64,000 bases of DNA from assembly GCA_001782075.1 (NCBI GenBank), contig MFNO01000022.1:9540-73539 (forward strand). Reading direction: 5' to 3'. The notes beneath the pieces are model-generated. The model ran no database searches and was not told the DNA's origin. It worked only from the letters and a program-made list of their open reading frames with translations. Positions 2,889-53,087 of the stretch are shown here, in pieces (position 1 is the first letter of the stretch; the number at the start of each line of letters is the position of its first letter). A program made the translations under genes and the position numbers. This DNA is from Candidatus Levybacteria bacterium RIFCSPHIGHO2_01_FULL_38_26. GTDB lineage: Bacteria > Patescibacteriota > Microgenomatia > Levybacterales > UBA12049.

Positions 2889-2929
2889 GGCATAATTATA
2901 ACAGGGCTTGAGCCTATAAACAAACCAAA

Positions 2930-3307
2930 TTATTTTTTGTGATTCGAAAATAGGAGCTCGAGGACGAAGAAGAGGGCTACAAGAAGTAATAGAAAAAAGA
3001 AATGGGTTAAGTTATAAAAGCGGAGAAGTAAATAGAAGACTATAGCAAGAGCAATAAGAAGACCTCTTCTAGAATTATTTAAAATATAAGCAGAGAGAGA
3101 AAAAGTAGATAGGAATACAAGAATAAAGAAGAATGGAATAGTTGTAAGTTGTAAGCCGTAAGAATTAAGCTTTTGTGTAGGGTCTGAGTTCATTATTAAA
3201 TAACTCAAAGAAGCAAAGGATATAAGGCTAAAAATCAAAAGAAGAAGTGGTCTTTTGCGGCGGCGCATATACATCCAGTTTAACACAATAAAAAAGGGAC
3301 TTGACAA
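2930..3307 (-). CDS. hypothetical membrane protein
   Basis: 125 aa, 3-4 hydrophobic helices; no motif recognised. Confidence 0.3.
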   Translation of the reverse strand: MSSPFFIVLNWMYMRRRKRPLLLLIFSLISFASLSYLIMNSDPTQKLNSYGLQLTTIPFFFILVFLSTFSLSAYILNNSRRGLLIALAIVFYLLLRFYNLTHFFFLLLLVALFFVLELLFSNHKK

Positions 3308-9066: not shown

Positions 9067-9861
9067 ATGATTGATGTTCATTGTCATTTAAATTTTCACG
9101 CATTTGAGAAGGATTACGAGAAGGTAATCAATAGTGCATATGATGCTGGGGTTACGAAGATTATTAATGTTGGGACCAAGATTGATTCGAGTCAAAAAGC
9201 AGTAGAGCTTGCAAGGAATTACGAAAACCTGTTTGCTATTGTCGGTGTTCATCCTCATCATGCAGACAAAATTGAAAGTGGATGGGAAGCTGAACTGGAA
9301 AAATTAGCCAAAGATACTAAAGTGGTTGGGATTGGGGAGTGCGGGATGGATTATTATAGATATAAATCAAACGATATCGTTGACCCAAAGGTTCAAAAAG
9401 AAATTTTTATAAAACAGATTGAACTTGCTTATAAACTTAAATTACCTCTACAAATTCACAATAGACATGCAGGCAAAGATATCCTCGATATAATCATAAA
9501 TCATAAATCATATCTTTCAGATCCTCCAGGGATGTTTCACTGCATGTCAGGAGATATTGATTTTTTAAAAAAAGTTCTTGATTTAGGTTTTTATGTTGGT
9601 TTTGATGGAAACATAACTTACAAAGGCATTGCGCCTGGAGAAAATACAGAGCTTAAAGACTTGGTTAAGTACGCTCCGCTTGATAGGATTGTCACAGAGA
9701 CAGACAGCCCTTTTTTAACCCCGCAGCCAAAACGAGGTAGCAGAAACATGCCAGAAAATGTTATAATTATAGGTAGGTTTATTGCGCAAATAAATGGATT
9801 GACATTGGGGCAAGTTGAGGAGCAAACAACAAAAAACGCGCACAATGTTTTTAAACTATGA
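9067..9861 (+). CDS. tatD: TatD-family metal-dependent DNase/hydrolase
   Basis: N-terminal IDVHCHLNF (HxH metal site), GVHPHH and GECGMDY segments typical of TatD. Confidence 0.8.
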   Translation: MIDVHCHLNFHAFEKDYEKVINSAYDAGVTKIINVGTKIDSSQKAVELARNYENLFAIVGVHPHHADKIESGWEAELEKLAKDTKVVGIGECGMDYYRYKSNDIVDPKVQKEIFIKQIELAYKLKLPLQIHNRHAGKDILDIIINHKSYLSDPPGMFHCMSGDIDFLKKVLDLGFYVGFDGNITYKGIAPGENTELKDLVKYAPLDRIVTETDSPFLTPQPKRGSRNMPENVIIIGRFIAQINGLTLGQVEEQTTKNAHNVFKL

Positions 9862-11351
9862 CAATATTTTTTCAAAAAATATTTACTCGCTATCCAAATA
9901 GAACCCAGCGAATGCTTGAAATATTGCCAGGATTTACTTCGTGGACTCTTATTCTTTTTCCTGTTTGGGGATCGCTGCTTATTCCTTACGTTGTTGCTTA
10001 CTTTATACTTTTTTTTGACGTTTATTGGTTTTATAAGTCGTTTTCACTGGCTATAACTGCTTATATTGCTTCCAAAAAAATAAAAGAGGCGGAAAATACG
10101 GATTGGCTAAAGAAAACAAAAAAACTCCGCAATTTTCAAAAAGTTACGCATGTCGTTGTAATTCCCAACTATAAAGAAAGTCTAGATAAACTTAGAGAAA
10201 CAGTCATGGCTCTGTCTTGGCAAACTTTTCCCCTAAAACGAATTTTTGTTGTTTTGGCAATGGAGGAGAGAGAAAAGGAGGCAACATATAAAGCCAAAAG
10301 CATAATTTCGGAATTTAGTCATATTTTTGGAGGCATCTTTGCTACTTACCACAAAGATGTTGCTGGAGAAGTTAAAGGTAAATCATCAAATGAGTCATAT
10401 GCTGCCAAAGTTGCGCATGATAAACTCGTGGATGATGGAATTATAGATATAAATTATGCAACTATATCTTCTGTTGATGCCGATTCAATCTTTGATAGAC
10501 AGTATTTTTCTTATCTTTGCTATAAGTTTCTCAACGATTCCAAACGCTATAATAAGTTTTGGCAGTCAGCAAATGTTTACTATAACAACTTTTGGAAGGT
10601 GCCGGCGCCTATTCGCGTCCTTGCTTTTTTTGGAAGTCTTTGGAGGATAGGCATACTTATTCAAAAAGACAGACTCGTTTCAAATTCTACCTATTCTTTG
10701 TCATTTTCGATGCTAAAAAAAATAGGATATTGGGATACAGATGTTATTCCTGAAGATTACAGAATTTTCTTCAAGGCTTTTTACAAACTGGGTGGAAACG
10801 TGTGGGCGGAGCCGATTTTTTTAAGAACGTCAATGGACGCACCTCTTTCTCATAGTTACATGAGAAGCCTTAAGAATAAATACAATCAAGAACTCCGTTG
10901 GTCATGGGGAGTATCGGATGATCCTTTGTTTATAAAATGGTGGTTAACAGTTCCCAACGTTCCCTTTATAAGAAAAACGATTATTCTTTACAATGTGCTT
11001 CTTGAACATTTTCTTTGGCCGGTCAATTGGTTTATCATAACAATCGCGGCAAATATTATGCCTTTTGTAAATCCTGTTTTTTCCCGCACCACTCTTGGCT
11101 ATAACTTGCCATACCTTGCGGGATTTATATTGACTTTGTGTCTTTTATCGCTGTGTTTTATGATAATTATAAACTTCAGACAGAGTTATAATTCCACTTC
11201 TCTATCAAAAGTTCGTCGATTATTAATGCCTCTTGAGTTTTTTCTCTTACCCATAGTTGGTTTTTTTCTCATAACTGTGCCTGCTCTTGTTTCACATACG
11301 CTTCTTATGATAGGAAAAAGGATTGAGTATAAAGTTACTGAAAAACTATGA
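9858..11351 (+). CDS. membrane-embedded processive family-2 glycosyltransferase (cellulose/chitin-synthase-like)
   Basis: N-terminal TM helices, a cytoplasmic GT-A domain with a DAD segment (SVDADS), the QxxRW hallmark (QELRW) and C-terminal TM helices. Confidence 0.6.
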   Translation: MTIFFQKIFTRYPNRTQRMLEILPGFTSWTLILFPVWGSLLIPYVVAYFILFFDVYWFYKSFSLAITAYIASKKIKEAENTDWLKKTKKLRNFQKVTHVVVIPNYKESLDKLRETVMALSWQTFPLKRIFVVLAMEEREKEATYKAKSIISEFSHIFGGIFATYHKDVAGEVKGKSSNESYAAKVAHDKLVDDGIIDINYATISSVDADSIFDRQYFSYLCYKFLNDSKRYNKFWQSANVYYNNFWKVPAPIRVLAFFGSLWRIGILIQKDRLVSNSTYSLSFSMLKKIGYWDTDVIPEDYRIFFKAFYKLGGNVWAEPIFLRTSMDAPLSHSYMRSLKNKYNQELRWSWGVSDDPLFIKWWLTVPNVPFIRKTIILYNVLLEHFLWPVNWFIITIAANIMPFVNPVFSRTTLGYNLPYLAGFILTLCLLSLCFMIIINFRQSYNSTSLSKVRRLLMPLEFFLLPIVGFFLITVPALVSHTLLMIGKRIEYKVTEKL

Positions 11352-12799
11352 GGATCGTCTTAAAACTTGGAAAAAGCCACGATCTTTTATTTCTCGTATT
11401 CTCCTTTGTTGCTTTTTTTCTACTTAGACTTCCTTCTTTTTTTGAGCCAAATTGGTATGGAGATGAGGGAGTATACCAGGCGATAGGAGAGGCTATCAAT
11501 AAAGGGAGTTTATTATATAGAGATATTTGGGATAACAAACCGCCGCTTCTTTATTTTCTTTACGCATTGTTTAACTCTGATCAGTTTGCCTTGCGGTTTG
11601 TCTCCTTTATTTTTGGAGCATTTTCTATTGTGGTTTTTTTCTTTTTGTCCAAAAAGCTTTTCTCGCATTATTTTTTGACTACTTCTATTTTCGTGATACT
11701 TTTGGGACTTCCTATTATTGAGGGGAATATTGCTAATGCCGAAAATTTCATGATGCTTCCAATTCTTTTGTCTGCCTTTTTAATCTATAGTTTGCCTAAA
11801 CCACATTCAAAAACTGTTAGCTTTCAATTAGTTGCGGCTGGTTTATTACTTGGCATTGCTTTTCTTTTTAAAGTGGTCGCAATTTTTGACCTAATTGCGT
11901 TTTTAATTTTTCTTGTTATTGCAAACATACATCATAGATTCGGTTTAGCCATAATAAAAGAGAAGGTATTACCTCTTGTTTTTGGTTTTTTAATGCCTTT
12001 TATTATTGCTGTTTTGTACTTTTGGACACAGGGCACTTTTGCGGATTTTGTAAAAGCAAGCTTTTCTAGTAATATCGGCTATGTAGCATGGGAGAACAAA
12101 GTTATCTTTTCTCAAGATTTGCTTTTACTTAAAACGCTTTTATTAGGAATTGTAGTTGTTTTGATTTTTGTAAAACGTAAGCTATTTAGCGTAAGCGCGC
12201 TTTTTATTCTATTGTGGTTTGTGTTCTCGTTGTATAGTGCTTTTTTTACCCAGCGCCCTTACACACACTATCTTTTAGTGCTTCTTCCTAGTTTTTGCCT
12301 TTTGTTTGGTTTAATATTTTCGGAGAAAAAACAGCAAAAGATACTAACTATTTTTTTTATTTTTGCACTCGTGTTGATTATGAAAAATTTCAACCTTTAT
12401 GAAAAATCAATTAGTTATTATCAAAATTTTGCCTCTTTTTTGATAGGAAACAAATCAGTTGTTTCTTATCAAGAGTTTTTCGATAAAAGAACGCCTGTTG
12501 ATTATAAAGTAGCGTCATTTATTAAGTCAAAACTAGGGAAAGAAGAAACAATTTTTATCTGGGGAAACAATGCCCAACTTTATAAAATCATAGGAACTAC
12601 GCCTTCTGTAAAGTACGTTGTATCATATCATGTCTTAAGCAACGAGGATGGGATGAGTAATATAAGAAAGACAATCAAAGCTACTAAGCCAAGGTTTATT
12701 ATTATCATGCCTGATCAAGAGCCTGCTTCTTTTGAGCTTGTCCAGTACTTTGAGAGAATTAGTATTGATAGGGTATCAATATATGAGAGGTTTTTTTAA
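11348..12799 (+). CDS. GT-C fold glycosyltransferase (GT39/GT83, PMT/ArnT-like), polytopic membrane protein
   Basis: More than 10 TM helices; first-loop WYGDEGVY (the DE motif of PMT/ArnT-type GT-C enzymes). Confidence 0.55.
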   Translation: MRIVLKLGKSHDLLFLVFSFVAFFLLRLPSFFEPNWYGDEGVYQAIGEAINKGSLLYRDIWDNKPPLLYFLYALFNSDQFALRFVSFIFGAFSIVVFFFLSKKLFSHYFLTTSIFVILLGLPIIEGNIANAENFMMLPILLSAFLIYSLPKPHSKTVSFQLVAAGLLLGIAFLFKVVAIFDLIAFLIFLVIANIHHRFGLAIIKEKVLPLVFGFLMPFIIAVLYFWTQGTFADFVKASFSSNIGYVAWENKVIFSQDLLLLKTLLLGIVVVLIFVKRKLFSVSALFILLWFVFSLYSAFFTQRPYTHYLLVLLPSFCLLFGLIFSEKKQQKILTIFFIFALVLIMKNFNLYEKSISYYQNFASFLIGNKSVVSYQEFFDKRTPVDYKVASFIKSKLGKEETIFIWGNNAQLYKIIGTTPSVKYVVSYHVLSNEDGMSNIRKTIKATKPRFIIIMPDQEPASFELVQYFERISIDRVSIYERFF

Positions 12800-13136
12800 A
12801 AATATAATCTTTGATAAAACTACGCGCTTGGGGTTCTTTGGCACTTTCGGGACAGTATTAATTACTTTTTTATTGATAGTAGTTTATTACAATAAGATGC
12901 CTCCTTTTGTTCCAATTTTTAATCAGCTTCCATGGGGAGAACAAAGGTTGGGGATAAAAACAGAAATATTTATTCCAGTTTCAATCGTTTTTCTAGTTTT
13001 TGTAGTTAATCTGTTGTTGTCTTCAATTATATACAAAAAAATTCCTCTTGCTTCCCGTATCCTGGTAATAAGTAGCTTTACTTTTTCTATTCTCGCTTTC
13101 TTTTTTACGATAAGAACAATTCAGCTAATAATTTAA
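12732..13136 (+). CDS. small membrane protein, 3-4 TM. The true start is probably an internal ATG near 12784, because this ORF overlaps the preceding gene by 68 bp.
   Basis: Hydrophobic profile only. Confidence 0.3.
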   Translation: MSLSSTLRELVLIGYQYMRGFFKNIIFDKTTRLGFFGTFGTVLITFLLIVVYYNKMPPFVPIFNQLPWGEQRLGIKTEIFIPVSIVFLVFVVNLLLSSIIYKKIPLASRILVISSFTFSILAFFFTIRTIQLII

Positions 13137-14200
13137 TGATAGTTTATTTACCTCTCATAACTGCGTTTCTTGCAACAATCATTGCAACGCCTCTGTCTTT
13201 GATTTTCATAAGACGTATGGGACTTTTTGATGATCCAAAAAGCCACAAGCATCCGGGTATAATTCACAAGATTCCAATACCAAGGGGCGGAGGAATACCT
13301 CTTGTTATAGGTATCTTTTTCGGGTCTATTTTTTTTCTGCCTTTTTCAAGCATTACTATTGCATTGTATTTTGCCTTGTTGTTCGCACTTTTTGTCGGGG
13401 TGTTGGATGACAAATTTGACATTTCTCCTTATTTTAGGTTTTTACTAAATATAATAGCGGCAATTATAGTGGTGGCAAGTGGCGTAGCCGTGCCTTTTAT
13501 TACAAACCCCTTTGATGGAATTCTTAATCTGGACAGTGTTGTTTTTTTCTCTCCTTTTGATACTTTTAATATTACAGCTTCTCAGATAATTGCAGTTATT
13601 TGGATAGTTTGGGTTATGAACATGCTTAATTGGAGTAAAGGGGTTGATGGACAGATGCCTGGAATAGTGGCAATATCGGCAGTTATCATTGGTATTGTAA
13701 GCATGCGTTATCCTCTAACTGAAGAGAATACTTTGATCGCCACAACTCTGTCATTTGCTATAGCTGGAAGCGCATTGGGTTTTTTGCTTTACAATTTTTA
13801 TCCTGCAAAAATTTTTCCAGGTTACGGCGCTACTGCTCTCTATCTTGCATTGGCAGTTGTATCTGTTCTTTCCAGCTCAAAACTGGCAACCGCAATACTT
13901 GTCATGGGAGTCCCGATGGTTGATGGAGCATTTACTGTAGTGCGAAGAATTCTAACAGGCCGTTCTCCTTTTTGGCATGACAACAAACATCTTCATCATT
14001 TGCTTCTTAGCCTTGGTCTTGGCCAGCGGTCCATAGCCTTGTTTTACTGGGGGATATCTGCTATATTAGGTACGATTTCTCTTCTTTTGTCAAGCAGAGG
14101 CAAAATGTTTGCAATTATAATGTTGATAGTTTTGGTAGGGGGAGCTTTGTTTTTTCTGCATTATGCCTTGAGCCATACAAATGATAAAAAAAACATATAA
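13136..14200 (+). CDS. polyprenyl-phosphate N-acetylhexosamine-1-phosphate transferase family (MraY/WecA-like)
   Basis: NMLNWSKGVDGQMPG matches the N..N..DG.DG signature of the MraY/WecA family; about 10 TM helices; 354 aa. Confidence 0.7.
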   Translation: MIVYLPLITAFLATIIATPLSLIFIRRMGLFDDPKSHKHPGIIHKIPIPRGGGIPLVIGIFFGSIFFLPFSSITIALYFALLFALFVGVLDDKFDISPYFRFLLNIIAAIIVVASGVAVPFITNPFDGILNLDSVVFFSPFDTFNITASQIIAVIWIVWVMNMLNWSKGVDGQMPGIVAISAVIIGIVSMRYPLTEENTLIATTLSFAIAGSALGFLLYNFYPAKIFPGYGATALYLALAVVSVLSSSKLATAILVMGVPMVDGAFTVVRRILTGRSPFWHDNKHLHHLLLSLGLGQRSIALFYWGISAILGTISLLLSSRGKMFAIIMLIVLVGGALFFLHYALSHTNDKKNI

Positions 14201-15122
14201 AATTTTAAAACTATTGCGGCCCAAACAATGGATAAAAAATTTGGCAATTTTTGCTGCGATTACTTTCTCGGGCAACCTGTTTGAACCTCTGATCTTTCAA
14301 CAAGTTCTGATCGCATTTTTTGCATTTTGCGGTCTTTCTTCTGCTGCATACATAGTTAACGATATATTTGACATAAAAAAAGACAGACTTCATCCTTTTA
14401 AAAAATTCAGGCCGCTAGCGCATGGAGATATTTCTATACCTGTTGCTCTTGTTATAGCGGCTTTTCTTACAATTGGATCATTATTTTTGGGATTTTTTGT
14501 AACGCCTGCATTTTTTTTGCTAGCTCTTATATATCTAGCCATTCAACTTCTATACTCGACGATCTTAAAACCAATAGCTATTATTGACATCTTGGCCATA
14601 GCGGCAGGATATATCCTCAGAGTTTACGCGGGCGAGGTAGCATCTGGCTTTCACATATCAGTCTGGCTGTCTTTGACAACGATTTCGGTATCTCTATTCT
14701 TGGCTATCGGCAAAAGAAGATCGGAGCTTACTCTTTTGTCTAGTAACAAAAGTTTAGATATAGCGAATATAAGAAAATCTTTGTCTCATTATTCGGAAAG
14801 ACTTTTAGATGTCTATGCTTCAATTTTCGCAACATCAACTTTTATTTCTTATACTCTTTTTACTTTTCTTGAGAACCCAAGAGGGCTAAAGCTTGGCCTA
14901 AGCGTTCTTCTTCCAGATTTTTTGCCGGATTTTTTCCAGAGAAAGTGGCTCATGATAACAATTGCTCCGGTTGTCTATGGACTCATGCGGTACCTGCAAG
15001 ATATTTATGAAAAGCAGGAAGGGGAAAGCCCAGAAAGAGTTCTTTTGTCAGACAAACCGCTTCTTATAACTGTAATTATTTGGATTATATTTGTTATTGG
15101 AATAATATATGTTTTGGGCTAA
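14181..15122 (+). CDS. UbiA-family prenyltransferase (decaprenyl-phosphate phosphoribosyltransferase-like)
   Basis: NDIFDIKKDRLHPFKKFRPLA matches the NDxxDxxxD...RP(I/L)A motif; 8-9 TM helices. Confidence 0.7.
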   Translation: MIKKTYKILKLLRPKQWIKNLAIFAAITFSGNLFEPLIFQQVLIAFFAFCGLSSAAYIVNDIFDIKKDRLHPFKKFRPLAHGDISIPVALVIAAFLTIGSLFLGFFVTPAFFLLALIYLAIQLLYSTILKPIAIIDILAIAAGYILRVYAGEVASGFHISVWLSLTTISVSLFLAIGKRRSELTLLSSNKSLDIANIRKSLSHYSERLLDVYASIFATSTFISYTLFTFLENPRGLKLGLSVLLPDFLPDFFQRKWLMITIAPVVYGLMRYLQDIYEKQEGESPERVLLSDKPLLITVIIWIIFVIGIIYVLG

Positions 15123-15134
15123 TAAGTATAATCC

Positions 15135-15992
15135 ATGAAGTTAAAATACAAAGATAAGCTAGGGAAGACAATCAAATATTTTAGCGCAAAAGAATCTCGC
15201 TGGGGTTATAGTTTGCTCCTTAGGGGAACAAAGCATTTTGGATATTATCCAGTAGGAAAAGAACATATACCGATGAGCAAGGCTCAAAGATTAATGGAGG
15301 ATAAGTTGGGAAAAAAACTCGATCTTCCTCATAATTCGATGTTGTTAGATGCCGGCAGCGGTGAAGGAAATGTAGCAATATATCTCGCGGAAAAATACGG
15401 TTTTAACATACGCGGAGTAGACTTATTGGGTTTTGCAGTTAAACGCGCAGAGGAAAAATCCAAAAGATTGAATTTGCAAAATAAAGTTGAATTCCACGCT
15501 GGAGATTATACCAAGTTGAATTTTCCAAATAAGACCTTCGATGGCGTTTACACGATGGAGACTTTAGTACATGTCCCTGATTACAAAAAAGCCCTTTCAG
15601 AGTTTTACCGAATATTAAAACCTGGAGGTAGACTAGCTCTTTTTGAGTATTCGATACCTTCGAGGGAAAATCTTTCGCCAGAAGATCAACAGACTTGGAA
15701 TATGATCAACGAAGAATCTGGCATGCATAGTCTGCCATATTTTATTCATGGGAAAATGCCTCAAATACTAAAAAATGCAGGATTCGATAATGTTGTGGTA
15801 GAAAATATTACTCCGCACGTTCTTCCGATGTTAAGAAAATTTTATTTAATTGCGTACGTGCCTTATATTCTTTTTAAAGCATTAGGATTGCAAAGAAAAT
15901 TTATTAATACAACCTCGCCAGTTGAAGTATATAGAAGGTTAAAAGCAACCGATTATTGGAGGTACAATGTTATTACTGCAGTAAAAAGGTAA
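15135..15992 (+). CDS. class I SAM-dependent methyltransferase
   Basis: Motif I LLDAGSGEGNVAIYLAE and post-I acidic loop. Confidence 0.6.
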   Translation: MKLKYKDKLGKTIKYFSAKESRWGYSLLLRGTKHFGYYPVGKEHIPMSKAQRLMEDKLGKKLDLPHNSMLLDAGSGEGNVAIYLAEKYGFNIRGVDLLGFAVKRAEEKSKRLNLQNKVEFHAGDYTKLNFPNKTFDGVYTMETLVHVPDYKKALSEFYRILKPGGRLALFEYSIPSRENLSPEDQQTWNMINEESGMHSLPYFIHGKMPQILKNAGFDNVVVENITPHVLPMLRKFYLIAYVPYILFKALGLQRKFINTTSPVEVYRRLKATDYWRYNVITAVKR

Positions 15993-16025: not shown

Positions 16026-16841
16026 TTATTGTTTCTCTGCGTATTGGCTGCTGATCCAGCCTGTAGTTTCATCATCAAGTTTTATCTCAAGCCATCCGTC
16101 CCCCTCGCTTACTAAATCAAAAGTTTCACCAGGGTTTACTCTATCAATTTCCAGAGAAGCTGTTGAGCTGGCAGATCTGACTCTAAGAAATCCGGTCGGA
16201 GTATCAAGTATTACTATTTTGTTAACAGCTTGTGGTTGTTCCTGTGCCGAAGGGCTTGATACAGGTAGTATACCGAGAGAAATTAAGGCGGTGAGCTTAA
16301 ATCCTAGAGCTGTTTTTATCGCGACCGATCTATCTTTGTATCCTTCTTTTGTGATATTTAGAATATAATCAGAAGATTTGGACTCTTTAAGTGAAAATGG
16401 AGTTGTGCCTGATGGTTTGTTATTTAAAAACACACTCGTATCGTTTGGCAGAGACATAATCAAAAGTTCAGCTTCTTTGTCGCTGGGAATTGAGGTAAGA
16501 CTAATAATACTGCTGCTACCCTGAGACCCTTCTTCAAATTCCTTGTCAATAACTGTAAGAGTAGATTTATTTATAGTGATTTTTTCTTCAAATTCTCCAA
16601 ATTCGCTATTGGCAGGGACTAGTTTTATCGAATGCTCTCCAGTTTCAATAAGATCTTCAGGGTTACATTTACAAAGAGGTGTGTCTCCTATTTTTTCCCC
16701 ATTTAGAAACACTGATGCGACTGGCGTTGAGGTTACTTGCAGAGCTCCTTTTCCTGAGTTGTCTTGGAAAAATAATATAACACCTAAAAAAATGATTCCC
16801 GCCAAGAGGAGAAGAAAAACGAATATAATAATCTTTTTCAT
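16026..16841 (-). CDS. secreted/membrane-anchored protein with C-terminal bacterial SH3-like domain
   Basis: N-terminal signal/TM helix; C-terminal ...PGETFDLVSEGDGWLEIKLDDETTGWISSQY resembles SH3b. Confidence 0.4.
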   Translation of the reverse strand: MKKIIIFVFLLLLAGIIFLGVILFFQDNSGKGALQVTSTPVASVFLNGEKIGDTPLCKCNPEDLIETGEHSIKLVPANSEFGEFEEKITINKSTLTVIDKEFEEGSQGSSSIISLTSIPSDKEAELLIMSLPNDTSVFLNNKPSGTTPFSLKESKSSDYILNITKEGYKDRSVAIKTALGFKLTALISLGILPVSSPSAQEQPQAVNKIVILDTPTGFLRVRSASSTASLEIDRVNPGETFDLVSEGDGWLEIKLDDETTGWISSQYAEKQ

Positions 16842-45703: not shown

Positions 45704-46849
45704 ATGGATTTGCGTGGTTACCTAAGCGTGTCTGACAGACGAAAGGGAGTAGAAGATAACATAGGAGTTAGCCTGAAAAACATTGGTAATTACTCTATAA
45801 ACGAAGAGATAGCATCTTCTAGAAATTGCGAGAACATGATAGGAGTTACGCAAATTCCCATAGGTATTGCTGGTCCATTAAAAATAAAAAGTGAATTTTT
45901 TAAAGAGGAGTTTTTCTTGCCTCTCGCTACAACCGAAGGGGTTTTGGTTGCCTCTGTAAGCAGGGGATGCAAAGCAATCACTCTAAGCGGAGGAGCTAAT
46001 GTTTTAAGTAAAAAAATAGGTATCACAAGGGCACCTGTTTTTGTTGTTGAGAATATTCTTGAAGGGAAAAAATTTGCAGATTGGGTGCATGCAAATTTTG
46101 ATCAACTGAAAAAAATTGCTGAAGACACATCTTCTCATCTAAAGCTTTTGGAGATAAAAGCTATCTCCATGGGAAGAAACGTTTATTTAAGATTTAGGTT
46201 TGACTCTCACGATGCAATGGGAATGAATATGGCAACAATTGCCGTAACAAAGTCAGCAGAATTTATCGAAAAAAAAGTTCATGTAAAGTGCGTAGCAGTT
46301 TCCGGCAACATGTGCGTTGACAAAAAACCTAATTTTCTGAATTTTATTGAAGGCAGAGGATATATGGTTTCAGCTGAGGCATTGATTCCCAAAAAACTTG
46401 TTAAAACTGTTTTGAAGGCTGAAATTAACGAAATTATAGAGGTTTATCAGCGGAAAATCGTTTACGGATCAGCACTCTCTGGGAGCATAGGGTCAAACGC
46501 TCACTTTGCCAATATTCTGGCGGCAATTTTTGCAGCTACTGGACAGGATTTGGCACATGTGGCAGAATGTTCTATAGGTACAACAACTATTGAGACAGTC
46601 AAAGATAGCCTCTATGCTTCGGTATATTTGCCAGATTTGGCAGTTGGAACAGTTGGCGGAGGAACAGGACTTGAGACTCAAAAAGAAGCATTGTCGATTA
46701 TGGGAGTTGCAGGTGGCGATAATGGTAAGAATGCTAGAAAATTTGCAGAGATTATCGGAGGTGCAGTTTTGGCAGGAGAAATTTCTCTTCTTGCTTCATT
46801 GGCAGAAGGTTCATTGGCATCGGTTCACAAAAGATTAGGCAGGGGATAA
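45704..46849 (+). CDS. hmgA: HMG-CoA reductase (catalytic domain)
   Basis: DAMGMN and VGTVGGGT motifs conserved in HMG-CoA reductases; 381 aa. Confidence 0.8.
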   Translation: MDLRGYLSVSDRRKGVEDNIGVSLKNIGNYSINEEIASSRNCENMIGVTQIPIGIAGPLKIKSEFFKEEFFLPLATTEGVLVASVSRGCKAITLSGGANVLSKKIGITRAPVFVVENILEGKKFADWVHANFDQLKKIAEDTSSHLKLLEIKAISMGRNVYLRFRFDSHDAMGMNMATIAVTKSAEFIEKKVHVKCVAVSGNMCVDKKPNFLNFIEGRGYMVSAEALIPKKLVKTVLKAEINEIIEVYQRKIVYGSALSGSIGSNAHFANILAAIFAATGQDLAHVAECSIGTTTIETVKDSLYASVYLPDLAVGTVGGGTGLETQKEALSIMGVAGGDNGKNARKFAEIIGGAVLAGEISLLASLAEGSLASVHKRLGRG

Positions 46850-46862
46850 GTTTTAAATAAAA

Positions 46863-47900
46863 ATGAGTGGTATTGTTTCTTACGGTACATATATTCCTAA
46901 ATATCGTCTTAGGCTCTCAAGTATCGCCCAAATGTGGGGGAAAGACTCCGACGAGATAGAAGCGGGACTTCGTATGGTTGAAAAGGCAGTTTCCGGCTTT
47001 GACGAAGATGCAGTGACAATGGGTATTGAGGCAGGTAAAAAGGCAATTGAGTTGGCAGAGATTAAATCTGGTGAGCTTGAGAGTGTATATTTTGGTTCAG
47101 AAAGCCATCCTTATGCTGTTAAACCCTCTTCAACATCAGTTGCGCAGTATCTTGGTGTTGGAAACAATTATTTTGCGGCTGATTTGGAATTTGCCTGCAA
47201 AGCCGCAACTGCTGGAATGCAGGTGTCATCTGCTTTATTAAATAGCAAAGTCATAAAATATGGATTAGTAATAGGAAGTGATGCGGCACAAGGAAAACCC
47301 CATGATGCCTTAGAATATACAGCTGCAAGCGCGGCTTGTGCCTATATTTTAGGAAATAATAAAAACGAGATCATTGCAGAAATTCTTGAAATGTCATCAT
47401 TTTCCTCAGATACTCCGGATTTTTGGAGAAGAGACGGAGCAAGATATCCTTCCCACTTCGGAAGATTTACCGGAGAGCCTGCGTATTTTACCCATGTAAT
47501 GGGAGCGGCTAAAAATTTGTTTGCCAAAAGCAAGCTTAAGCCCTCTGATTTTGATTTTTGTGTATTTCATATGCCAAATGGTAAATTTCCACGAGTTGTT
47601 GGGAAAAAACTAGGTTTTACCAGCGAGCAACTAGCACCTTCTTTAATAGTAGATAAGATTGGCAATCCATATTCTGCGTCTTCTTTGATGGGATTGGCAT
47701 GTGTTTTGGATGTAGCAAAACCAAAGCAGAAAATATTTTTTGTTTCATATGGATCGGGAGCAGGATCAGATGGGTTTATATTTGAGACGACAGAGAAGCT
47801 CTTAAAAAGGCAAAAAAAGATAATTCCGGTACTAGAGCAGATAGAAGATAAGATTTATATTTCTTATCCAGAATATCTAAAGCACACACACGCAATATGA
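46863..47900 (+). CDS. HMG-CoA synthase, short archaeal-type
   Basis: 345-aa thiolase-fold condensing enzyme with an active-site Cys region (ADLEFACKAATAG); precedes the thiolase and DUF35 genes as in archaeal MVA operons. Confidence 0.75.
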   Translation: MSGIVSYGTYIPKYRLRLSSIAQMWGKDSDEIEAGLRMVEKAVSGFDEDAVTMGIEAGKKAIELAEIKSGELESVYFGSESHPYAVKPSSTSVAQYLGVGNNYFAADLEFACKAATAGMQVSSALLNSKVIKYGLVIGSDAAQGKPHDALEYTAASAACAYILGNNKNEIIAEILEMSSFSSDTPDFWRRDGARYPSHFGRFTGEPAYFTHVMGAAKNLFAKSKLKPSDFDFCVFHMPNGKFPRVVGKKLGFTSEQLAPSLIVDKIGNPYSASSLMGLACVLDVAKPKQKIFFVSYGSGAGSDGFIFETTEKLLKRQKKIIPVLEQIEDKIYISYPEYLKHTHAI

Positions 47901-49045
47901 AGATAAGTATATTAGGTACTGCAACAACCAAATTTGGAGAATTGTGGAACATTTCTCCTCGCGCGTTGGCAAAAGAAGCAATGATTAGTGCCCTAGATGC
48001 TTCGGGGTTAAAAGCTCATCAAATAGATGCATTGTTTGTGGGGAATATGCTATCTGGAATATTGGGAAATCAGGCAAATTTAGGATCACTTTTAGTTGAA
48101 GAATTGGGTGTTAACATCCCGGCATTTAGGATAGAGGGCGCATGTGCATCCGGAGGATTGGCTCTTCACAATGCGGTAAACAGTCTTAAAGCTTACCAAT
48201 ACAGGACAGCTTTAGTTTTAGGGATAGAAAAAATGACAGATCATAGTCAGGATGAGATTACAAATGCTCTTATGGCGGCGGGATCAGATGAAGAAAGATT
48301 GGCAGGCGCAACATTCCCGGGTGTATATGCTCTAATGGCACAGGCTTATATGCAAAAGTATAAAGTTACAGAAGAGGATTTAGCCGCAGTTTCTGTAAAA
48401 AATCATTATCATGGGACCCTTAATTCAAAGGCACAGTTCCAGTTTGAAGTATCAATTTCAGATGTTATGAAGAGTTCAAAGATTGCGGATCCACTTAAGC
48501 TTTTGGATTGCTCCCCTATTTCAGACGGGGCGGCAGCTGTTGTTATTACAAGCGATGAAAATTCTAAAAAAATTAAAAACAATGTTTATATCGCTGCAAG
48601 TGAAGTAGCAACAGATACTCTTAGCCTTCATGACAGAAAATCTTTCACAAGCCTTGAATCAGTAGTTAAGGCATCTAACAATGCGTACAAGAAAACAGGG
48701 ATAAAACCAAAAGACATTGACGTTTCTGAAATTCATGATTGTTTTTCAATTTCCGAGGCAATTGCAACAGAAGACTTGGGGTTTTCAGAAAAAGGAGAAG
48801 GCGCAATAGATATTGCCAAAGGAAAAAGAACTCTTTTTAAGGGAGATATTATTTGTAATCCCTCTGGTGGGCTTAAGGCTTGCGGTCATCCGGTTGGGGC
48901 AACCGGTATAAAACAAATAGTAGAGATAACAGAGCAATTACGCGGGGAGGCTGGAAAACGTCAGGTTGAAAAAGCGAAGATTGGCTTGACTCACAATGTT
49001 GGAGGGAGTGGAACAGTTGCCGCAATTCATATCTTGAGGAGTTGA
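47897..49045 (+). CDS. acetoacetyl-CoA thiolase, archaeal-type
   Basis: Catalytic Cys motif IEGACASGG and C-terminal GHPVGATG and NVGGSG thiolase motifs. Confidence 0.8.
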   Translation: MKISILGTATTKFGELWNISPRALAKEAMISALDASGLKAHQIDALFVGNMLSGILGNQANLGSLLVEELGVNIPAFRIEGACASGGLALHNAVNSLKAYQYRTALVLGIEKMTDHSQDEITNALMAAGSDEERLAGATFPGVYALMAQAYMQKYKVTEEDLAAVSVKNHYHGTLNSKAQFQFEVSISDVMKSSKIADPLKLLDCSPISDGAAAVVITSDENSKKIKNNVYIAASEVATDTLSLHDRKSFTSLESVVKASNNAYKKTGIKPKDIDVSEIHDCFSISEAIATEDLGFSEKGEGAIDIAKGKRTLFKGDIICNPSGGLKACGHPVGATGIKQIVEITEQLRGEAGKRQVEKAKIGLTHNVGGSGTVAAIHILRS

Positions 49046-49353
49046 TATTTATGATAACATCGCCTGTAAAACTTTGGAGAAGACAAAAAAGCGCATCATC
49101 TCTTATTGGGAAAAAGGGTAAGATTTTGCACTGGACAATTATTCGAGTTCCAGCAAAATCTTTTGTTGATCAGGCTCCGTATCCTGTGGTAATTGTGAAA
49201 GTGCAAAATGGAGAAAATATGATTGGACAACTAGTTGATTGGCAAAAAGAGGATTTAAAAGTTGGGCAGGATGTAGTATGTGTTTTGAGACGACTGCGCA
49301 CCGAAGAGAGAGAAAGCATAATCTACTACAATATTAAATTTAAACCTCTATGA
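49042..49353 (+). CDS. DUF35-family OB-fold protein (scaffold of the archaeal thiolase/HMGCS complex), without an N-terminal Zn ribbon
   Basis: PYPVVIVKVQNGENMIGQLVDW...LKVGQDVVCVL matches the DUF35 OB-fold consensus (PY.VALVEL.EG.R....IVD......IGM.V). Confidence 0.55.
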   Translation: MIFMITSPVKLWRRQKSASSLIGKKGKILHWTIIRVPAKSFVDQAPYPVVIVKVQNGENMIGQLVDWQKEDLKVGQDVVCVLRRLRTEERESIIYYNIKFKPL

Positions 49354-50417
49354 AACTTATTAAAGTTTCTGCCCCGGGGAAACTTCATTTACTTGGTGAA
49401 CACGCAGTTGTTTATGGTAAACCTGCAATTATTGCTGCAATTGGCAAAAGATGTTTTGTCTATATAAAAAACCGTAGCGATAAAAAAATAAACATCTCAT
49501 CAGAAAGTTTTGGGAAAAGTAATAATTTTACAGAGAAAGAGATTATTGATAAAACAAAAAAAGCGCAGTTAAATTGGGAAAAGTATATAGAAAACAATGA
49601 CATTCTGCTTCTTAAGTCAATAACTTCAGATCCTCTTGATTTTCCGGCAATAATTATTGGAGAAAGTTTGAGGTATTTTAAAAAGAAGATTTCTTCTGGC
49701 TTTGACCTTAAAATAAAATCAGATATTCCGATTGGATCAGGCATGGGATCATCTGCAGCATTAAGCGTTGCTATTGCAGGAGGAATTTCCATATTTCTTG
49801 GTGAAGGCTTAAATAAAAACGTTATAAACGAAATTGCATTTAAATCTGAACAGAAAAAGCATGGTTTTCCATCTGGCGGTGATAACTCAGCAAGTTGTTT
49901 TGGTGGAATGATTTGGTATAGAAAAGAGTCCCCGGACTTAAAAATTATTCAGAAAATACCATTTGAATTTCCAGCAAAGTTATCACGAAACTTCTACGCG
50001 ATTCATACAGGCATACCTAGCGAATCGACAGGAGAAATGGTTAGTATTGTAAGAAATTTACATTCGAAAAGAAAAAATTTTGTGGATGGTATTTTATCTA
50101 ATCAAGAAAGATTGGTGGTGGAACTTTTATCTGCAGTCAAAAGAGAAGATGAGTTAGAAATTATAAATATTATTAAGAATGGCGAGAGAAATTTGGAGAA
50201 ACTTGGGGTGGTTTCTGATTCGGCAAAGTTGTTAATAAGATCAATTGAAAAAAATGGAGAAGCTGCGAAAATTTGTGGAGCAGGAGGAAAGAAAAAAGGA
50301 GCAGGAATAGTCTTGGTTTATAGTAAGCATACGGAGTTCGTAAAAAGCTTAGCAAAATTTCATAATTACAAATGCATAAATATTTATATGGGCGAGGAGG
50401 GTTTTAGAAAGGAATGA
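49350..50417 (+). CDS. mvk: mevalonate kinase (GHMP family)
   Basis: SAPGKLHLLGEHAVVYG N-terminal motif; GHMP ATP motif PIGSGMGSSAA. Confidence 0.75.
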   Translation: MKLIKVSAPGKLHLLGEHAVVYGKPAIIAAIGKRCFVYIKNRSDKKINISSESFGKSNNFTEKEIIDKTKKAQLNWEKYIENNDILLLKSITSDPLDFPAIIIGESLRYFKKKISSGFDLKIKSDIPIGSGMGSSAALSVAIAGGISIFLGEGLNKNVINEIAFKSEQKKHGFPSGGDNSASCFGGMIWYRKESPDLKIIQKIPFEFPAKLSRNFYAIHTGIPSESTGEMVSIVRNLHSKRKNFVDGILSNQERLVVELLSAVKREDELEIINIIKNGERNLEKLGVVSDSAKLLIRSIEKNGEAAKICGAGGKKKGAGIVLVYSKHTEFVKSLAKFHNYKCINIYMGEEGFRKE

Positions 50418-51382
50418 ATAAGAAAATGGTTTCTGCACCTGGAAAATTGATGCTCATGGGTGAACACGCAGTTGTCTATGATCATCCTTGTCTTGTGACT
50501 GCGGTTGATCAGAGAATGTGGGTTACCATTGAATTGATGGATAATCAAGAGTTTTGGCTTGAGGCAAAGGACGTCGGGATAAAAGAACACAAAAAAACAT
50601 TAAAAGATTTGGGGAAAGGTGGAATTCCAAAAGGAGCAAAATTTGTAGAATTAGCGGTTAAAAATATCATTGAAAAGTATTCCTTGAAATCGGGTTTTAA
50701 AGTGGTTACAAAATCAGAATTCTCAAGCGAGTTTGGATTTGGATCCTCTTCTGCGTCAACAGTTTGTACAATAAAAGCAATATCGGAGATTTTTAAATTA
50801 AATTTATCGCATAAAGAAATATTTGATATTTCTTATAAAACAGTTCTGGATATTCAGGGAAAAGGATCGGGATTTGATGTTGCCGCGTCAGTATATGGTG
50901 GAACATTATATTTCTTGACCGGAGGAAGAGCGATTAAACCATTTGGTATTAAATCCTTGCCTTTAGTTGTAGGATATAGCGGGGTAAAAGCAGATACGGC
51001 TCAGCTTATAAATAAAGTAAAAGAAGATTATTTCACTAAAAAAGATCGTCTTGATGAGATTTATAATAAGATTGAAGTTTTAGTTAATCAGGGAAAAGAT
51101 GCGCTTGTTAAAAGGGATTGGAAAGCGCTTGGCAAATTAATGAATAAAAATCAGGAATATTTAGTTGAACTTGGTGTTAGCAGTGGTATGCTTGATAAGA
51201 TGATTGAGGCTGTATTACAAGCCGAGGCATATGGCGCGAAACTTTCAGGAGCTGGCGGCGGAGATTGTATGATCGCGATTGTTTCGGAGGGCAAGAAAGA
51301 AGCTGTCAAAAGAGCCATTTTAAGCACTGGGGGAACAATAGTTAATGTTGAAACAGATGCGGAAGGAGTTAAAGTAGAATAA
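50414..51382 (+). CDS. second GHMP kinase, probable phosphomevalonate kinase
   Basis: SAPGKLMLMGEHAVVY and GFGSSSAST motifs; sits between mvk and the decarboxylase. Confidence 0.55.
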   Translation: MNKKMVSAPGKLMLMGEHAVVYDHPCLVTAVDQRMWVTIELMDNQEFWLEAKDVGIKEHKKTLKDLGKGGIPKGAKFVELAVKNIIEKYSLKSGFKVVTKSEFSSEFGFGSSSASTVCTIKAISEIFKLNLSHKEIFDISYKTVLDIQGKGSGFDVAASVYGGTLYFLTGGRAIKPFGIKSLPLVVGYSGVKADTAQLINKVKEDYFTKKDRLDEIYNKIEVLVNQGKDALVKRDWKALGKLMNKNQEYLVELGVSSGMLDKMIEAVLQAEAYGAKLSGAGGGDCMIAIVSEGKKEAVKRAILSTGGTIVNVETDAEGVKVE

Positions 51383-51385
51383 ACA

Positions 51386-52363
51386 ATGAAAGCGACAGCA
51401 GTTGCGCCGTCAAATATTGCTTTTATTAAATACTGGGGCAAAAAAGATGAGGGATTAAGAATTCCTTTGAATGGAAGTATTTCTATGAATTTAAGCAATC
51501 TTTTGACTACGACAACCGTCGAGTTTAACCCAAAATTTAAAAAAGATGCAGTCACAATTGATGATCAAAAAGAAGACGAAGCAAAAAACAGGGTAATTAA
51601 ACATTTGGATAGAGTAAGGAAAATTGCAAAAATAAATGATAGGGCAAAAGTTGTTTCGGTCAATAATTTCTCGACAAGCACTGGTCTTTCATCATCAGCG
51701 TCCGGTTTTGCTGCTTTGACCCTTGGCGCCTCATGTGCAGCAGGGTTAAATTTGTCAGAAAAAGAATTATCGATTCTTGCAAGAGTTGGTTCAGGATCTG
51801 CGTGTCGTTCTATTCCTGATGGTTTTGTTGAGTGGTTTCCTGGAGAAACAAACGAAACCTCTTATTCTGTATCATTTTTTCCTCAAGATTACTGGGATAT
51901 TGTTGATGTTGTTGCGATAATTAGTAAAGATAAAAAAGAAGTTCCAACAACAGCGGGTCAAAAATATACAAAAACTAGCCCCTTTCTCCCAACTCGTTTA
52001 GAACGAATAGAAGAGAAAATAAAATTAGTTAAAAAATATATTCAAGAAAAAAACTTTTCTCTTTTTGGAGAATTGATTGAGCAGGAAGCATTAGAGCTTC
52101 ATTCTATTATGCTGACGTCAAAACCACCGCTTATCTATTGGTTGCCAGAAACTTTGAAAGTAATGCATGCTGTTATAAAGTGGAGGCAAGAGGGGTTGCA
52201 AGTTTATTTTACTATTAATACAGGCCAAAACATTCACCTTATCTGTCGAGAGAAAGATTTGAAAAAAGTTATGGTCAGAATAAAAGAGTTATCAGTAGTA
52301 ATAAAAACAATTATTAACAATCCAAGCAGAGGCGCAGACTTGACAACATCTCATTTATTTTAA
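51386..52363 (+). CDS. mvaD: diphosphomevalonate decarboxylase family
   Basis: NIAFIKYWGKKDE and STGLSSSASGFAAL motifs. Confidence 0.8.
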   Translation: MKATAVAPSNIAFIKYWGKKDEGLRIPLNGSISMNLSNLLTTTTVEFNPKFKKDAVTIDDQKEDEAKNRVIKHLDRVRKIAKINDRAKVVSVNNFSTSTGLSSSASGFAALTLGASCAAGLNLSEKELSILARVGSGSACRSIPDGFVEWFPGETNETSYSVSFFPQDYWDIVDVVAIISKDKKEVPTTAGQKYTKTSPFLPTRLERIEEKIKLVKKYIQEKNFSLFGELIEQEALELHSIMLTSKPPLIYWLPETLKVMHAVIKWRQEGLQVYFTINTGQNIHLICREKDLKKVMVRIKELSVVIKTIINNPSRGADLTTSHLF

Positions 52364-52367
52364 AATT

Positions 52368-53087
52368 TTATTTTCCAAACCTTCTTTGTCTGTTTGAGTA
52401 TTCTTGGACAGCGAAATCGATATCGTCTTCGTTTAGATCCGGAAAGTGTTTGTCAAAAAAAACATACTCTGCATAAGCTGCCTGCCAGATCATAAGCCCC
52501 GATGTTCTTTGTTCCCCGCTTGTTCTTATAATCAGATCTGGATTCGGATGCGGTTGGTCATGCGTGTCTAGAAATTGATTAAAATTCTTCTCATCTAAGT
52601 TTTGAACTTTGAACTCTTGCTCTGAGCGACGTCGAAGAGTTGAACTTTGAACTTTCTTGATTGCTCGGATTACTTCATCGCGTCCTCCATAGTCAAGAGC
52701 GACATTTAAAATATATTTTTTGAAATCTTTTGTTTTTTCTTCACTTTCTGTAATTTTTTTAAGCAAACTTTTAGGAAGCCTGTCTTTTCTTCCAAGGTGA
52801 ACCACTCGTATTTCTTCTTTTATGGACTCCTTTAGATTTTTTTCTATGAATATTTCATATAGTTTCATAAGATACCGAACTTCTTCTAGAGCTCTTTTCC
52901 AGTTTTCGGTCGAGAATGCCCAAAGGGTGAAGGTGTTTATTCCCAAAGTCCTTACTTTTCGTCCGATCTTTATCGCAGTGTCAAACCCAATCCTATGTCC
53001 CTCAAAGGTAGGTTTGTTACGAGATTTTGCCCATCTCCTGTTGCCATCTGGAATTATAGCCAAATGATTTGGAATGGTAAGTTGCAT
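52368..53087 (-). CDS. uppS: undecaprenyl-diphosphate synthase (cis-prenyltransferase)
   Basis: HLAIIPDGNRRWA and the C-terminal RFG motif. Confidence 0.9.
   Translation of the reverse strand: MQLTIPNHLAIIPDGNRRWAKSRNKPTFEGHRIGFDTAIKIGRKVRTLGINTFTLWAFSTENWKRALEEVRYLMKLYEIFIEKNLKESIKEEIRVVHLGRKDRLPKSLLKKITESEEKTKDFKKYILNVALDYGGRDEVIRAIKKVQSSTLRRRSEQEFKVQNLDEKNFNQFLDTHDQPHPNPDLIIRTSGEQRTSGLMIWQAAYAEYVFFDKHFPDLNEDDIDFAVQEYSNRQRRFGK

Follow-up and report, generated by a model that had tools for sequence, protein, structure and literature searches.

The window analysed here, a 64,000-nucleotide stretch of DNA (contig MFNO01000022.1) from Candidatus Levybacteria bacterium RIFCSPHIGHO2_01_FULL_38_26, contains a block of five genes coding, in this order, for a membrane-embedded family 2 glycosyltransferase (GT2), a glycosyltransferase of the GT-C fold, a small protein with three transmembrane (TM) segments, a transferase of the MraY/WecA superfamily (PNPT), and a UbiA homologue related to polyprenyl-phosphate phosphoribosyltransferases (PPPRS). 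We propose, with confidence and doubt in about equal parts, that these genes form a co-translated envelope-glycan operon belonging to the Levybacterial core genome, in which a polyprenyl-phosphate-ribofuranose (polyprenyl-P-Ribf) derived from phosphoribosyl pyrophosphate (PRPP) would be transferred by the GT-C enzyme. Direct support was obtained for the identities of the genes, their conservation and their operon-like packing.

Six open reading frames (ORFs) were found exactly at positions 9858-15992 of the window, all on the + strand (Table 1). The original prediction had seen here a polyprenyl-phosphate sugar cluster reminiscent of the mycobacterial decaprenyl-phospho-arabinose (DPA)/arabinan system; it spoke of five genes but listed six, and all six family assignments hold. 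The comparison set consisted of 80 related loci, one genome per species and nearly all from Levybacteria or Microgenomates, each covering ±10 kb around the match and together amounting to 1.30 Mb. Gene content was assessed with tblastn and ORF clustering, and ORFs were assigned to families with Pfam and NCBIfam models. Since full-length orthologues (27-82% identity overall) keep the same order in about 70-77 of these 80 species-level genomes, these are selected genes and not chance ORFs. The UbiA homologue was detected in 77 of the 80 loci, the PNPT in 75, the small protein in 74, the GT-C protein in 71 and the GT2 in 69, with identities of 58-82%, 50-71%, 27-53%, 37-55% and 56-74%, respectively.

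In essentially all loci with enough flank, the order is TatD, GT2, GT-C, small protein, PNPT and UbiA; behind UbiA come a PEGA/SH3 gene in convergent orientation and then GroEL/ES. The junctions are short throughout: the TatD/GT2 junction has a median of -4 nt (at most 30 nt in 55/64 loci), GT2/GT-C +3 nt (at most 30 nt in 55/61), GT-C/small protein -17 nt (overlapping in 68/68), small protein/PNPT +14 nt (at most 30 nt in 71/72), and PNPT/UbiA -20 nt (at most 30 nt in 75/75). In the window, the TatD and GT2 genes share 4 nt at their stop and start, the genes for the GT-C and the small protein share 17 nt, and those for the PNPT and UbiA share 20 nt. Such tight and uniform junctions are the pattern of a co-translated operon, and the operon call was made because of them, the promoter scan being uninformative.

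The UbiA homologue had been predicted, with its NDxxDxxxD motif, to lie closest to decaprenyl-phosphate phosphoribosyltransferases, and this placement is borne out. Two NCBIfam models for decaprenyl-phosphate phosphoribosyltransferases of the DPPR synthase type match it with 220.4 bits (NF008978, passing its cutoff of 207) and 232.3 bits (NF008977, just below its cutoff of 234). The models of other UbiA subfamilies (haem O synthase, 4-hydroxybenzoate prenyltransferases, GGGP-type, and chlorophyll synthase) give 57 bits at most, so that the protein does not cluster with menaquinone or haem-O enzymes. It aligns over its full length with the solved M. tuberculosis Rv3806c (8j8j, E=5.9e-39). In Rv3806c, R22, N73, D77, K87, R90, Y138, K143 and K208 are ligands of Mg2+ and pyrophosphate, K28, Y70, Q135 and Y157 bind the ribose and its 5-phosphate and are not conserved in ordinary UbiA prenyltransferases, and K28, Y157 and K191 bind the polyprenyl phosphate (PMC10994848). 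We tested 15 residues, namely, 13 from this structure paper and D74 and D81 of the NDxxDxxxD motif, in an alignment of 78 sequences (the window protein and 77 orthologues). The window protein keeps all 15; across the alignment, 14 of them (R22, K28, Y70, N73, D74, D77, D81, K87, R90, Q135, Y138, K143, Y157 and K191) are essentially invariant, the exception being K208. The active site is thus directly supported, and, as judged from its sequence, the protein is a genuine polyprenyl-phosphate phosphoribosyltransferase of the Rv3806c type. It carries no fused phosphatase, consisting only of the UbiA domain, which matches positions 193-382 of the 482-position model NF006088.

The second gene codes for a protein matching the Pfam families PMT_2/PMT above gathering scores. 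Its first extracytoplasmic loop, EPNWYGDEGVY (aa 33-43), contains the WYGDEGVY motif (aa 36-43, nt 11453-11476) on which the GT-C assignment had originally been made, and a soluble alpha/beta domain occupies the C-terminal part (about aa 370-483). Among 102 orthologues (48-65% identity), the loop directly following TM1 is near-invariant (E33-P-x-W36-Y37-G-D39-E40-G41-x-Y43), so the catalytic-loop conservation on which the original assignment depended is present; the blocks D62-N-K-P, E125-G-N-x-A-N-x-E-N-F and R303-P-Y-x-H307 are also invariant. Single sequences and Levybacteria-only profiles found no sequence relatives in the PDB. The predicted structure directly supports the fold, which, in the modelled protein, is certainly GT-C. 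The structures nearest to the model are GPI-MT-I, ALG3, ArnT and Pmt4, and the mycobacterial arabinofuranosyltransferases score clearly lower (AftA 13.3, AftB 11.9, AftD 10.7, and EmbA 7.8). The protein has no special affinity to the Emb/Aft enzymes; the enzymes nearest to it take their sugar from a polyprenyl-monophosphate-monosaccharide, the type of donor that the PPPRS would supply. At the sequence level, membership of PMT_2/PMT argues for a GT39/GT83-like family rather than GT136.

The small protein has no Pfam family, with only noise at permissive thresholds. Between TM1 and TM2, it harbours a conserved loop, LPPxIPxFNQLPWGExRL (FNQLPWG at nt 12918-12938), in which P40, P44, N47 and W51-G52 are invariant and which faces outward according to the positive-inside rule. 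The overlap of its start with the GT-C stop in 68/68 loci suggests that it works with the GT-C enzyme, and we regard it as a candidate GT-C partner or carrier-lipid flippase. GtrA and SMR flippases were considered for it and ruled out, given the three TM segments and the lack of a Pfam match.

With regard to the GT2, the motif QELRW noted in the original prediction lies at aa 344-348 (nt 10887-10901), in the company of DAD (aa 207-209), WDTD...PEDY (aa 292-301) and a C-terminal YKVTEK. In 59 orthologues, D207-A-D209, W292-D-x-D295, P298-E-D-Y301, Q344-E-x-R-W348 and K487...E490-Y-K-V-T-x-K496 are invariant; the aligned orthologues share 70-75% identity and almost all are exactly 497 aa long. 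The window protein itself stays below the Pfam cutoff (PF13641, 18.1 bits, cutoff 27), and its best NCBIfam match is PgaC/IcaA (26.8 bits); its family is assigned through orthologues, motifs and fold. At E<=0.01, 31 of the 59 orthologues match PF13632, 36 match PF13641, and 11 match Chitin_synth_2. TM segments at both the N and C termini flank the catalytic domain. The AlphaFold2 model has a mean predicted local distance difference test (pLDDT) score of 63.8 and is good in the GT-A core only, the membrane part staying below 50. In a Foldseek comparison, this model is most similar to hyaluronan synthases, followed by the minimal cellulose-synthase-like PcManGT and by BcsA.

No sequence relatives in the PDB were found with single GT2 sequences or Levybacteria-only profiles, and a profile of 121 members gave weak matches to BcsA (E=0.006) and to chitin synthase (E=0.011), with DxD, (T)ED and QxxRW in register. 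An exhaustive HMMER search shows the GT2 to be a distinct full-length family, with 556 clusters at 50% identity (E<=1e-30). The tail GKRIEYKVTEKL (aa 487-497, nt 11316-11348) is invariant and places YxVTxK at the extreme C terminus. FxVTxK is the gating-loop motif of cellulose and beta-glucan synthases (PMC6821405, PMC11658790), to which the YKVTEK tail bears a similarity of sequence that we take as a resemblance only. The GT2 is probably a membrane-embedded, processive synthase.

The PNPT was correctly predicted to be of the MraY/WecA type, as it belongs to PF00953, but the motif quoted for it, N..N..DG.DG, is absent: the sequence reads NMLNWSKGVDG (aa 162-172, nt 13619-13651), i.e., N..N..KG.DG in place of the motif of the bacterial MraY and WecA, and the Lys is kept in 70/74 orthologues. 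Its further motifs are DDKFD (aa 91-95), D263 and HLHH (aa 285-288). D91, D92, D95, D263, H285, H287 and H288 are invariant or nearly so (at least 73/74 orthologues), and N162, N165 and D171 are also kept. It is not an equivalog of WecA (TIGR02380, 86.9 bits, cutoff 326) or MraY (TIGR00445, 33.9 bits, cutoff 192), and its nearest solved relative is MraY (E=6e-10). By family default, the sugar-phosphate transferred would be N-acetylhexosamine (HexNAc)-1-phosphate.

The polyprenyl carrier can be traced to the same window, as the original prediction had proposed. A complete mevalonate pathway supplying isoprenoid precursors directly adjoins an undecaprenyl-diphosphate synthase gene (45704-53087); the mevalonate genes lie about 30 kb from the operon and are not part of it. 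Together with the operon, they suggest that much of the isoprenoid investment of the genome goes to polyprenyl-phosphate glycan carriers.

In the search for epimerases of the lipid-linked pentose, M. tuberculosis DprE1 and DprE2 sequences served solely as probes of all ORF sets and of the raw DNA (E<=0.01). They had no match in the window or in the 80 Levybacterial loci (1.30 Mb). The same probes match genes beside UbiA in 6-7 of 80 non-Levybacterial loci (about 36% identity, E down to 5e-79), with FAD_binding_4+ALO and adh_short domains according to Pfam; because these matches are Pfam-verified genes, they provide a positive control for the negative result. Likewise, no pair of FAD oxidase and SDR was present among the ORFs of the window or the recurrent flank families.

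In the proposed route, the PPPRS would form polyprenyl-P-ribofuranose-5-phosphate, as its conserved residues suggest. The 5-phosphate would be removed by a phosphatase encoded elsewhere, and the lipid-linked pentose flipped across the membrane, possibly with the help of the 3-TM protein. We infer that this product is coupled to the GT-C of the operon, an ArnT/PMT-like enzyme by fold, which would use the polyprenyl-P-pentofuranose as donor to glycosylate an extracytoplasmic acceptor. The PNPT would make polyprenyl-PP-HexNAc as a glycan primer or anchor, and the cellulose/hyaluronan-synthase-like GT2 would polymerise and export a beta-linked chain; the best acceptor candidates are the glycan primed by the PNPT, the polymer made by the GT2, and a surface protein.

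Such a route has precedents. The combination of a UbiA-type PPPRS, a flippase and an ArnT-like GT-C has been described as a widespread route of extracytoplasmic pentofuranosylation by Kelly et al. 2024 (PMC11127046), in which the lipid-linked product is polyprenyl-P-Ribf and linked epimerases lead to arabinofuranose (DprE1/E2) or xylofuranose (ORF13). As linked epimerases decide the pentose (PMC11127046) and no DprE1/DprE2 or other epimerase is linked to the Levybacterial operon, the sugar expected is most likely ribofuranose rather than arabinofuranose. In Citrobacter youngae O1/O2, the system comprises the PPPRS-PRP ORF15, the MATE flippase ORF14 and the GT-C ORF12, for which GT136 was founded because it had no similarity to existing families (PMC11127046). 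Similarly, about 70 Levybacterial genomes encode the PPPRS and an ArnT-like GT-C, whose TM1 is followed by an acidic motif, within one co-directional block. However, this block has neither a fused HAD phosphatase domain nor a MATE flippase, an unclassified 3-TM protein being found instead, and its GT-C matches Pfam PMT_2/PMT. Furthermore, it adds a linked PNPT and a synthase-like GT2, and it belongs to the conserved core genome of the phylum, whereas the C. youngae genes lie in a variable O-antigen locus.

With the mycobacterial pathway, the Levybacterial block shares a PPPRS homologous to Rv3806c, with conserved substrate residues, and an overall logic comprising a PNPT primer (WecA), a GT2 polymerase (GlfT2, for the galactan) and a GT-C whose donor is a lipid-linked pentose derived from PRPP. 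The likeness to the DPA/arabinan system claimed in the original prediction therefore stands for this logic and for the PPPRS, but not for the other components: DprE1/DprE2, the PAP2 phosphatase Rv3807c and the GtrA-like Rv3789 were not found locally in Levybacteria, and the GT-C does not belong to the Emb or Aft families, being structurally nearer to GPI-MT-I, ALG3, ArnT and Pmt4 than to these. In contrast to the soluble mycobacterial GlfT2, the Levybacterial GT2 is of the membrane-embedded synthase type. It has the D, D, D, QxxRW motifs and flanking TM segments of BcsA, hyaluronan synthase, chitin synthase, PgaC and the mycoplasma minimal synthases, but differs from BcsA-type synthases in being very divergent and in lacking a PilZ domain and partner subunits. 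Compared with ArnT (the Und-P-L-Ara4N:lipid A transferase, GT83) and protein O-mannosyltransferases (GT39), the Levybacterial GT-C is 12-16% identical and has a different C-terminal domain.

These features would fit a minimal and hitherto undescribed hybrid route, in which a self-exporting GT2 chain or a PNPT-primed chain is decorated outside the cell with ribofuranose by the ArnT-like GT-C, a new 3-TM subunit replacing the known flippases or accessory proteins, and which would be phylum-wide in Levybacteria and related Microgenomates. In this full extent, we regard the proposal as doubtful. If true, it would be the first case of a pathway for lipid-linked pentofuranose within the Candidate Phyla Radiation (CPR), and also the first of a synthase-made polymer decorated by a GT-C.

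Several observations weigh against a functionally coupled operon making a pentofuranosylated glycan. The neighbouring housekeeping genes (TatD, GroEL/ES, and MetRS) are equally conserved in position, so that synteny alone is no proof of functional coupling. A consensus promoter scan of the window gave no matches above chance, and the terminator-like sites of a terminator scan fall inside genes. No PAP2 or HAD phosphatase occurs among the ORFs of the window or the recurrent flank families, and no recognisable flippase (MATE, GtrA, or SMR) in the operon. The membrane part of the GT2 model has low confidence (pLDDT<50), and five distant members of the GT2 family lie in unrelated contexts without UbiA, GT-C or PNPT genes, which implies that the GT2 is autonomous elsewhere and that its linkage here is lineage-specific. 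Conversely, the Levybacterial partners are absent from the 80 non-Levybacterial PPPRS loci, which are metagenomic (L092-L171): the hidden Markov models of the GT-C, the GT2 and the small protein found no match, and the PNPT model matched in one locus. The neighbours of the PPPRS in these loci are heterogeneous, with no common partner set.

These observations leave some room for mere synteny, an unlikely but serious alternative in which the GT2 is an autonomous exopolysaccharide synthase, the GT-C uses another lipid-linked donor, the PNPT serves another glycan and the PPPRS a different GT-C. The positional conservation of the housekeeping genes, the solitary GT2 relatives and the PPPRS occurring elsewhere without the operon partners all speak for it. 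Yet the stop/start overlaps described above are kept almost always (GT-C/small protein in 68/68 loci, PNPT/UbiA within 30 nt in 75/75), polyprenyl-P-pentose has no known use except as a GT-C donor (PMC11127046), and the GT-C of the operon is the only one within 20 kb. Somewhat less credible to us is a miniature mycobacterial DPA/arabinan system, with DprE1/DprE2-like enzymes encoded elsewhere that epimerise the polyprenyl-P-ribose and a GT-C acting as an arabinofuranosyltransferase. The PPPRS is a clear homologue of Rv3806c, and in M. tuberculosis, too, dprE1/E2 lie apart from ubiA. Moreover, among loci whose flanks each cover at least 1.5 kb, DprE genes lie nearby in only 5/33 non-Levybacterial loci as against 0/65 Levybacterial ones; the local absence of these genes, which also counts as a caution against our assignment of the sugar, is therefore suggestive and not decisive, and epimerases elsewhere in the genome are possible.

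The order GT2, GT-C and small membrane protein is also reminiscent of gtr clusters, and the GT-C is closest to enzymes with polyprenyl-P-hexose donors. In a hexose module of the GtrB/GtrA/GtrC type, the GT2 would make polyprenyl-P-hexose, the small protein would flip it and the GT-C transfer it, leaving the PNPT and the PPPRS as an unrelated second module. We consider this improbable: a GtrB-type polyprenyl-P-sugar synthase was judged unlikely from the architecture and motifs of the GT2, which, with its 497 aa, TM segments on both sides, D/D/D/QxxRW motifs and matches to hyaluronan synthase, BcsA and chitin synthase, differs from the short GtrB/DPMS form with its C-terminal anchor, and the small protein, with three TM segments, is neither GtrA nor SMR. 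Finally, the UbiA homologue might be an ordinary aromatic or haem prenyltransferase of the MenA, UbiA or CtaB type, in a cluster unrelated to lipid-linked pentoses. Its Pfam UbiA membership and the label '4-hydroxybenzoate polyprenyltransferase' given to some orthologues in JGI records would agree with this; many others are named 'decaprenyl-phosphate phosphoribosyltransferase' by the NCBI pipeline. With non-DPPR models at 57 bits or less versus 220-232 for the DPPR models, and with the phosphoribose residues K28, Y70, Q135 and Y157 conserved, the MenA, UbiA and haem-O types are ruled out and this explanation is effectively refuted.

The preferred reading, a pentofuranose-using envelope-glycan operon, thus amounts to a plausible Levybacterial variant of the mycobacterial and Gram-negative pathways, as far as the sequences indicate. 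The individual genes have already been named by automated annotation, and the enzymology follows established families, with nothing mechanistically surprising; in the literature, we found no paper linking PPPRS or the operon to CPR or Levybacteria. The CPR/Patescibacteria represent a large share of bacterial diversity, many of them attached to other cells, and their surface chemistry is almost unknown. The operon, with the lipid-linked pentofuranose donor predicted from it, leads to a concrete and testable hypothesis about a surface glycan common to the phylum and containing a form of sugar that, to our knowledge, is lacking in animals and plants. If the hypothesis is true, the route from PRPP to polyprenyl-P-pentose would extend beyond Actinobacteria and Proteobacteria and gain a GT-C family and a small membrane partner, and the operon would account for a small genome keeping a full mevalonate pathway and UppS. 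Furthermore, furanose-specific probes or inhibitors of the Rv3806c type could label, enrich or perturb uncultured Levybacteria.

Table 1. Features of the window, with positions counted from its first nucleotide.
Feature	Position	Strand	Length (aa)	Assignment and remarks
TatD-family metal-dependent hydrolase	9067..9861	+		Pfam TatD_DNase; first gene of the co-directional block
Membrane-embedded GT2	9858..11351	+	497	Orthologues, motifs, fold
GT-C fold glycosyltransferase	11348..12799	+	483	Pfam PMT_2/PMT above gathering scores
Small 3-TM protein	12783..13136	+	117	Best start 12783; no known family
PNPT (MraY/WecA superfamily)	13136..14200	+	354	PF00953, 85.9 bits
UbiA-superfamily PPPRS / DPPR synthase, Rv3806c type (predicted)	14181..15122	+	313	NDIFDIKKD at aa 60-68
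Class I S-adenosylmethionine-dependent methyltransferase	15135..15992	+	285	No TM segment; family-level matches only
Membrane-anchored PEGA + SH3_3 protein	16026..16841	-		Pfam; convergent, conserved neighbour
Conserved protein beside MurJ	22086-23858	-	590	Sub-threshold match only
MurJ-family (MOP/MATE-like) protein	23945-25672	-		
Mevalonate genes: HMG-CoA reductase, HMG-CoA synthase-like, thiolase, 2 GHMP kinases, diphosphomevalonate decarboxylase	45704..52363	+		
Undecaprenyl-diphosphate synthase (UppS family, cis-prenyltransferase)	52368..53087	-		PF01255, 239 bits; polyprenyl carrier source
Nicotianamine synthase family ORF	54593-55381	-	262	PF03059, 59 bits
Shedu anti-phage defence protein	55833-56846			SduA_C domain, 91.9 bits

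The methyltransferase, which the original prediction had counted as a member of the cluster, is not part of its core. Across the 80 loci, it is restricted to the species of the window and one other locus (L030), and it sits at an insertion hot spot, the slot separating UbiA from the convergent PEGA/SH3 gene, where different lineages have unrelated cargo. In L028, L039, L055, L081, L082 and L083, this cargo comprises toxin-antitoxin-like, P-loop kinase-like and transposase-like genes and a 1274-aa ORF. With only two lineages carrying it and unrelated cargo in the same slot elsewhere, a role in the pathway was ruled out, and the methyltransferase is probably an accessory passenger at a permissive site, outside the conserved pathway.

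Among homologues of the PPPRS outside Levybacteria, the gene behind a PPPRS-like UbiA gene codes for a GHMP kinase in 11 metagenomic loci and for an amino-acid-kinase-family protein in 7 (e.g., L150 7818-8774 and L165 11518-12354). Given this isoprenoid-like context, part of the UbiA clade may serve a different function. In the deltaproteobacterial locus L085, a flavin amine-oxidase-family gene (2147-3226) immediately precedes the PPPRS homologue, in an exopolysaccharide locus with GT4 and Wzz/tyrosine kinase genes; its product may be an alternative oxidoreductase for the lipid-linked pentose.

The flank families recurring in the 80 genomes are MetRS, TatD, PEGA/SH3, GroEL/ES, a PKD/cohesin protein, LepA and MurJ, with PyrE/PyrF, DUF2079 and MetK as occasional ones. 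The TatD gene lies upstream of the GT2 in 65-68 loci; its product is probably a housekeeping hydrolase whose membership in the functional unit is uncertain. A TatD gene is also found 1.5 kb from the UbiA homologue of L085 (5608-6339), and to see in this hydrolase the missing phosphatase would be pure speculation. Upstream of TatD, nine genomes (e.g., L058 2102-3550) encode a DUF2079 protein of about 480 aa that is predicted to lie in the membrane. On the other side, the PEGA/SH3_3 gene, which codes for a possible wall-binding protein, directly follows UbiA in 74-79 loci, and its 3' end is a median of 6 nt away from the UbiA stop. Eight genomes (e.g., L038 4723-5574 and L057 2637-3272) carry an insertion between PEGA and GroEL that codes for PyrF (OMP decarboxylase) and for a PyrE-like phosphoribosyltransferase, which places further PRPP-using enzymes a few kb from the PPPRS.

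The MurJ-family gene, about 8.8 kb downstream of the operon, occupies the same position in 43 genomes, and its product is most likely the lipid II flippase. The conserved protein encoded beside it shows a match to carbohydrate phosphorylase, below threshold. The rest of the window consists of housekeeping genes and the Shedu gene. In addition, and unusually for a CPR bacterium, one ORF has a match to the nicotianamine synthase family.

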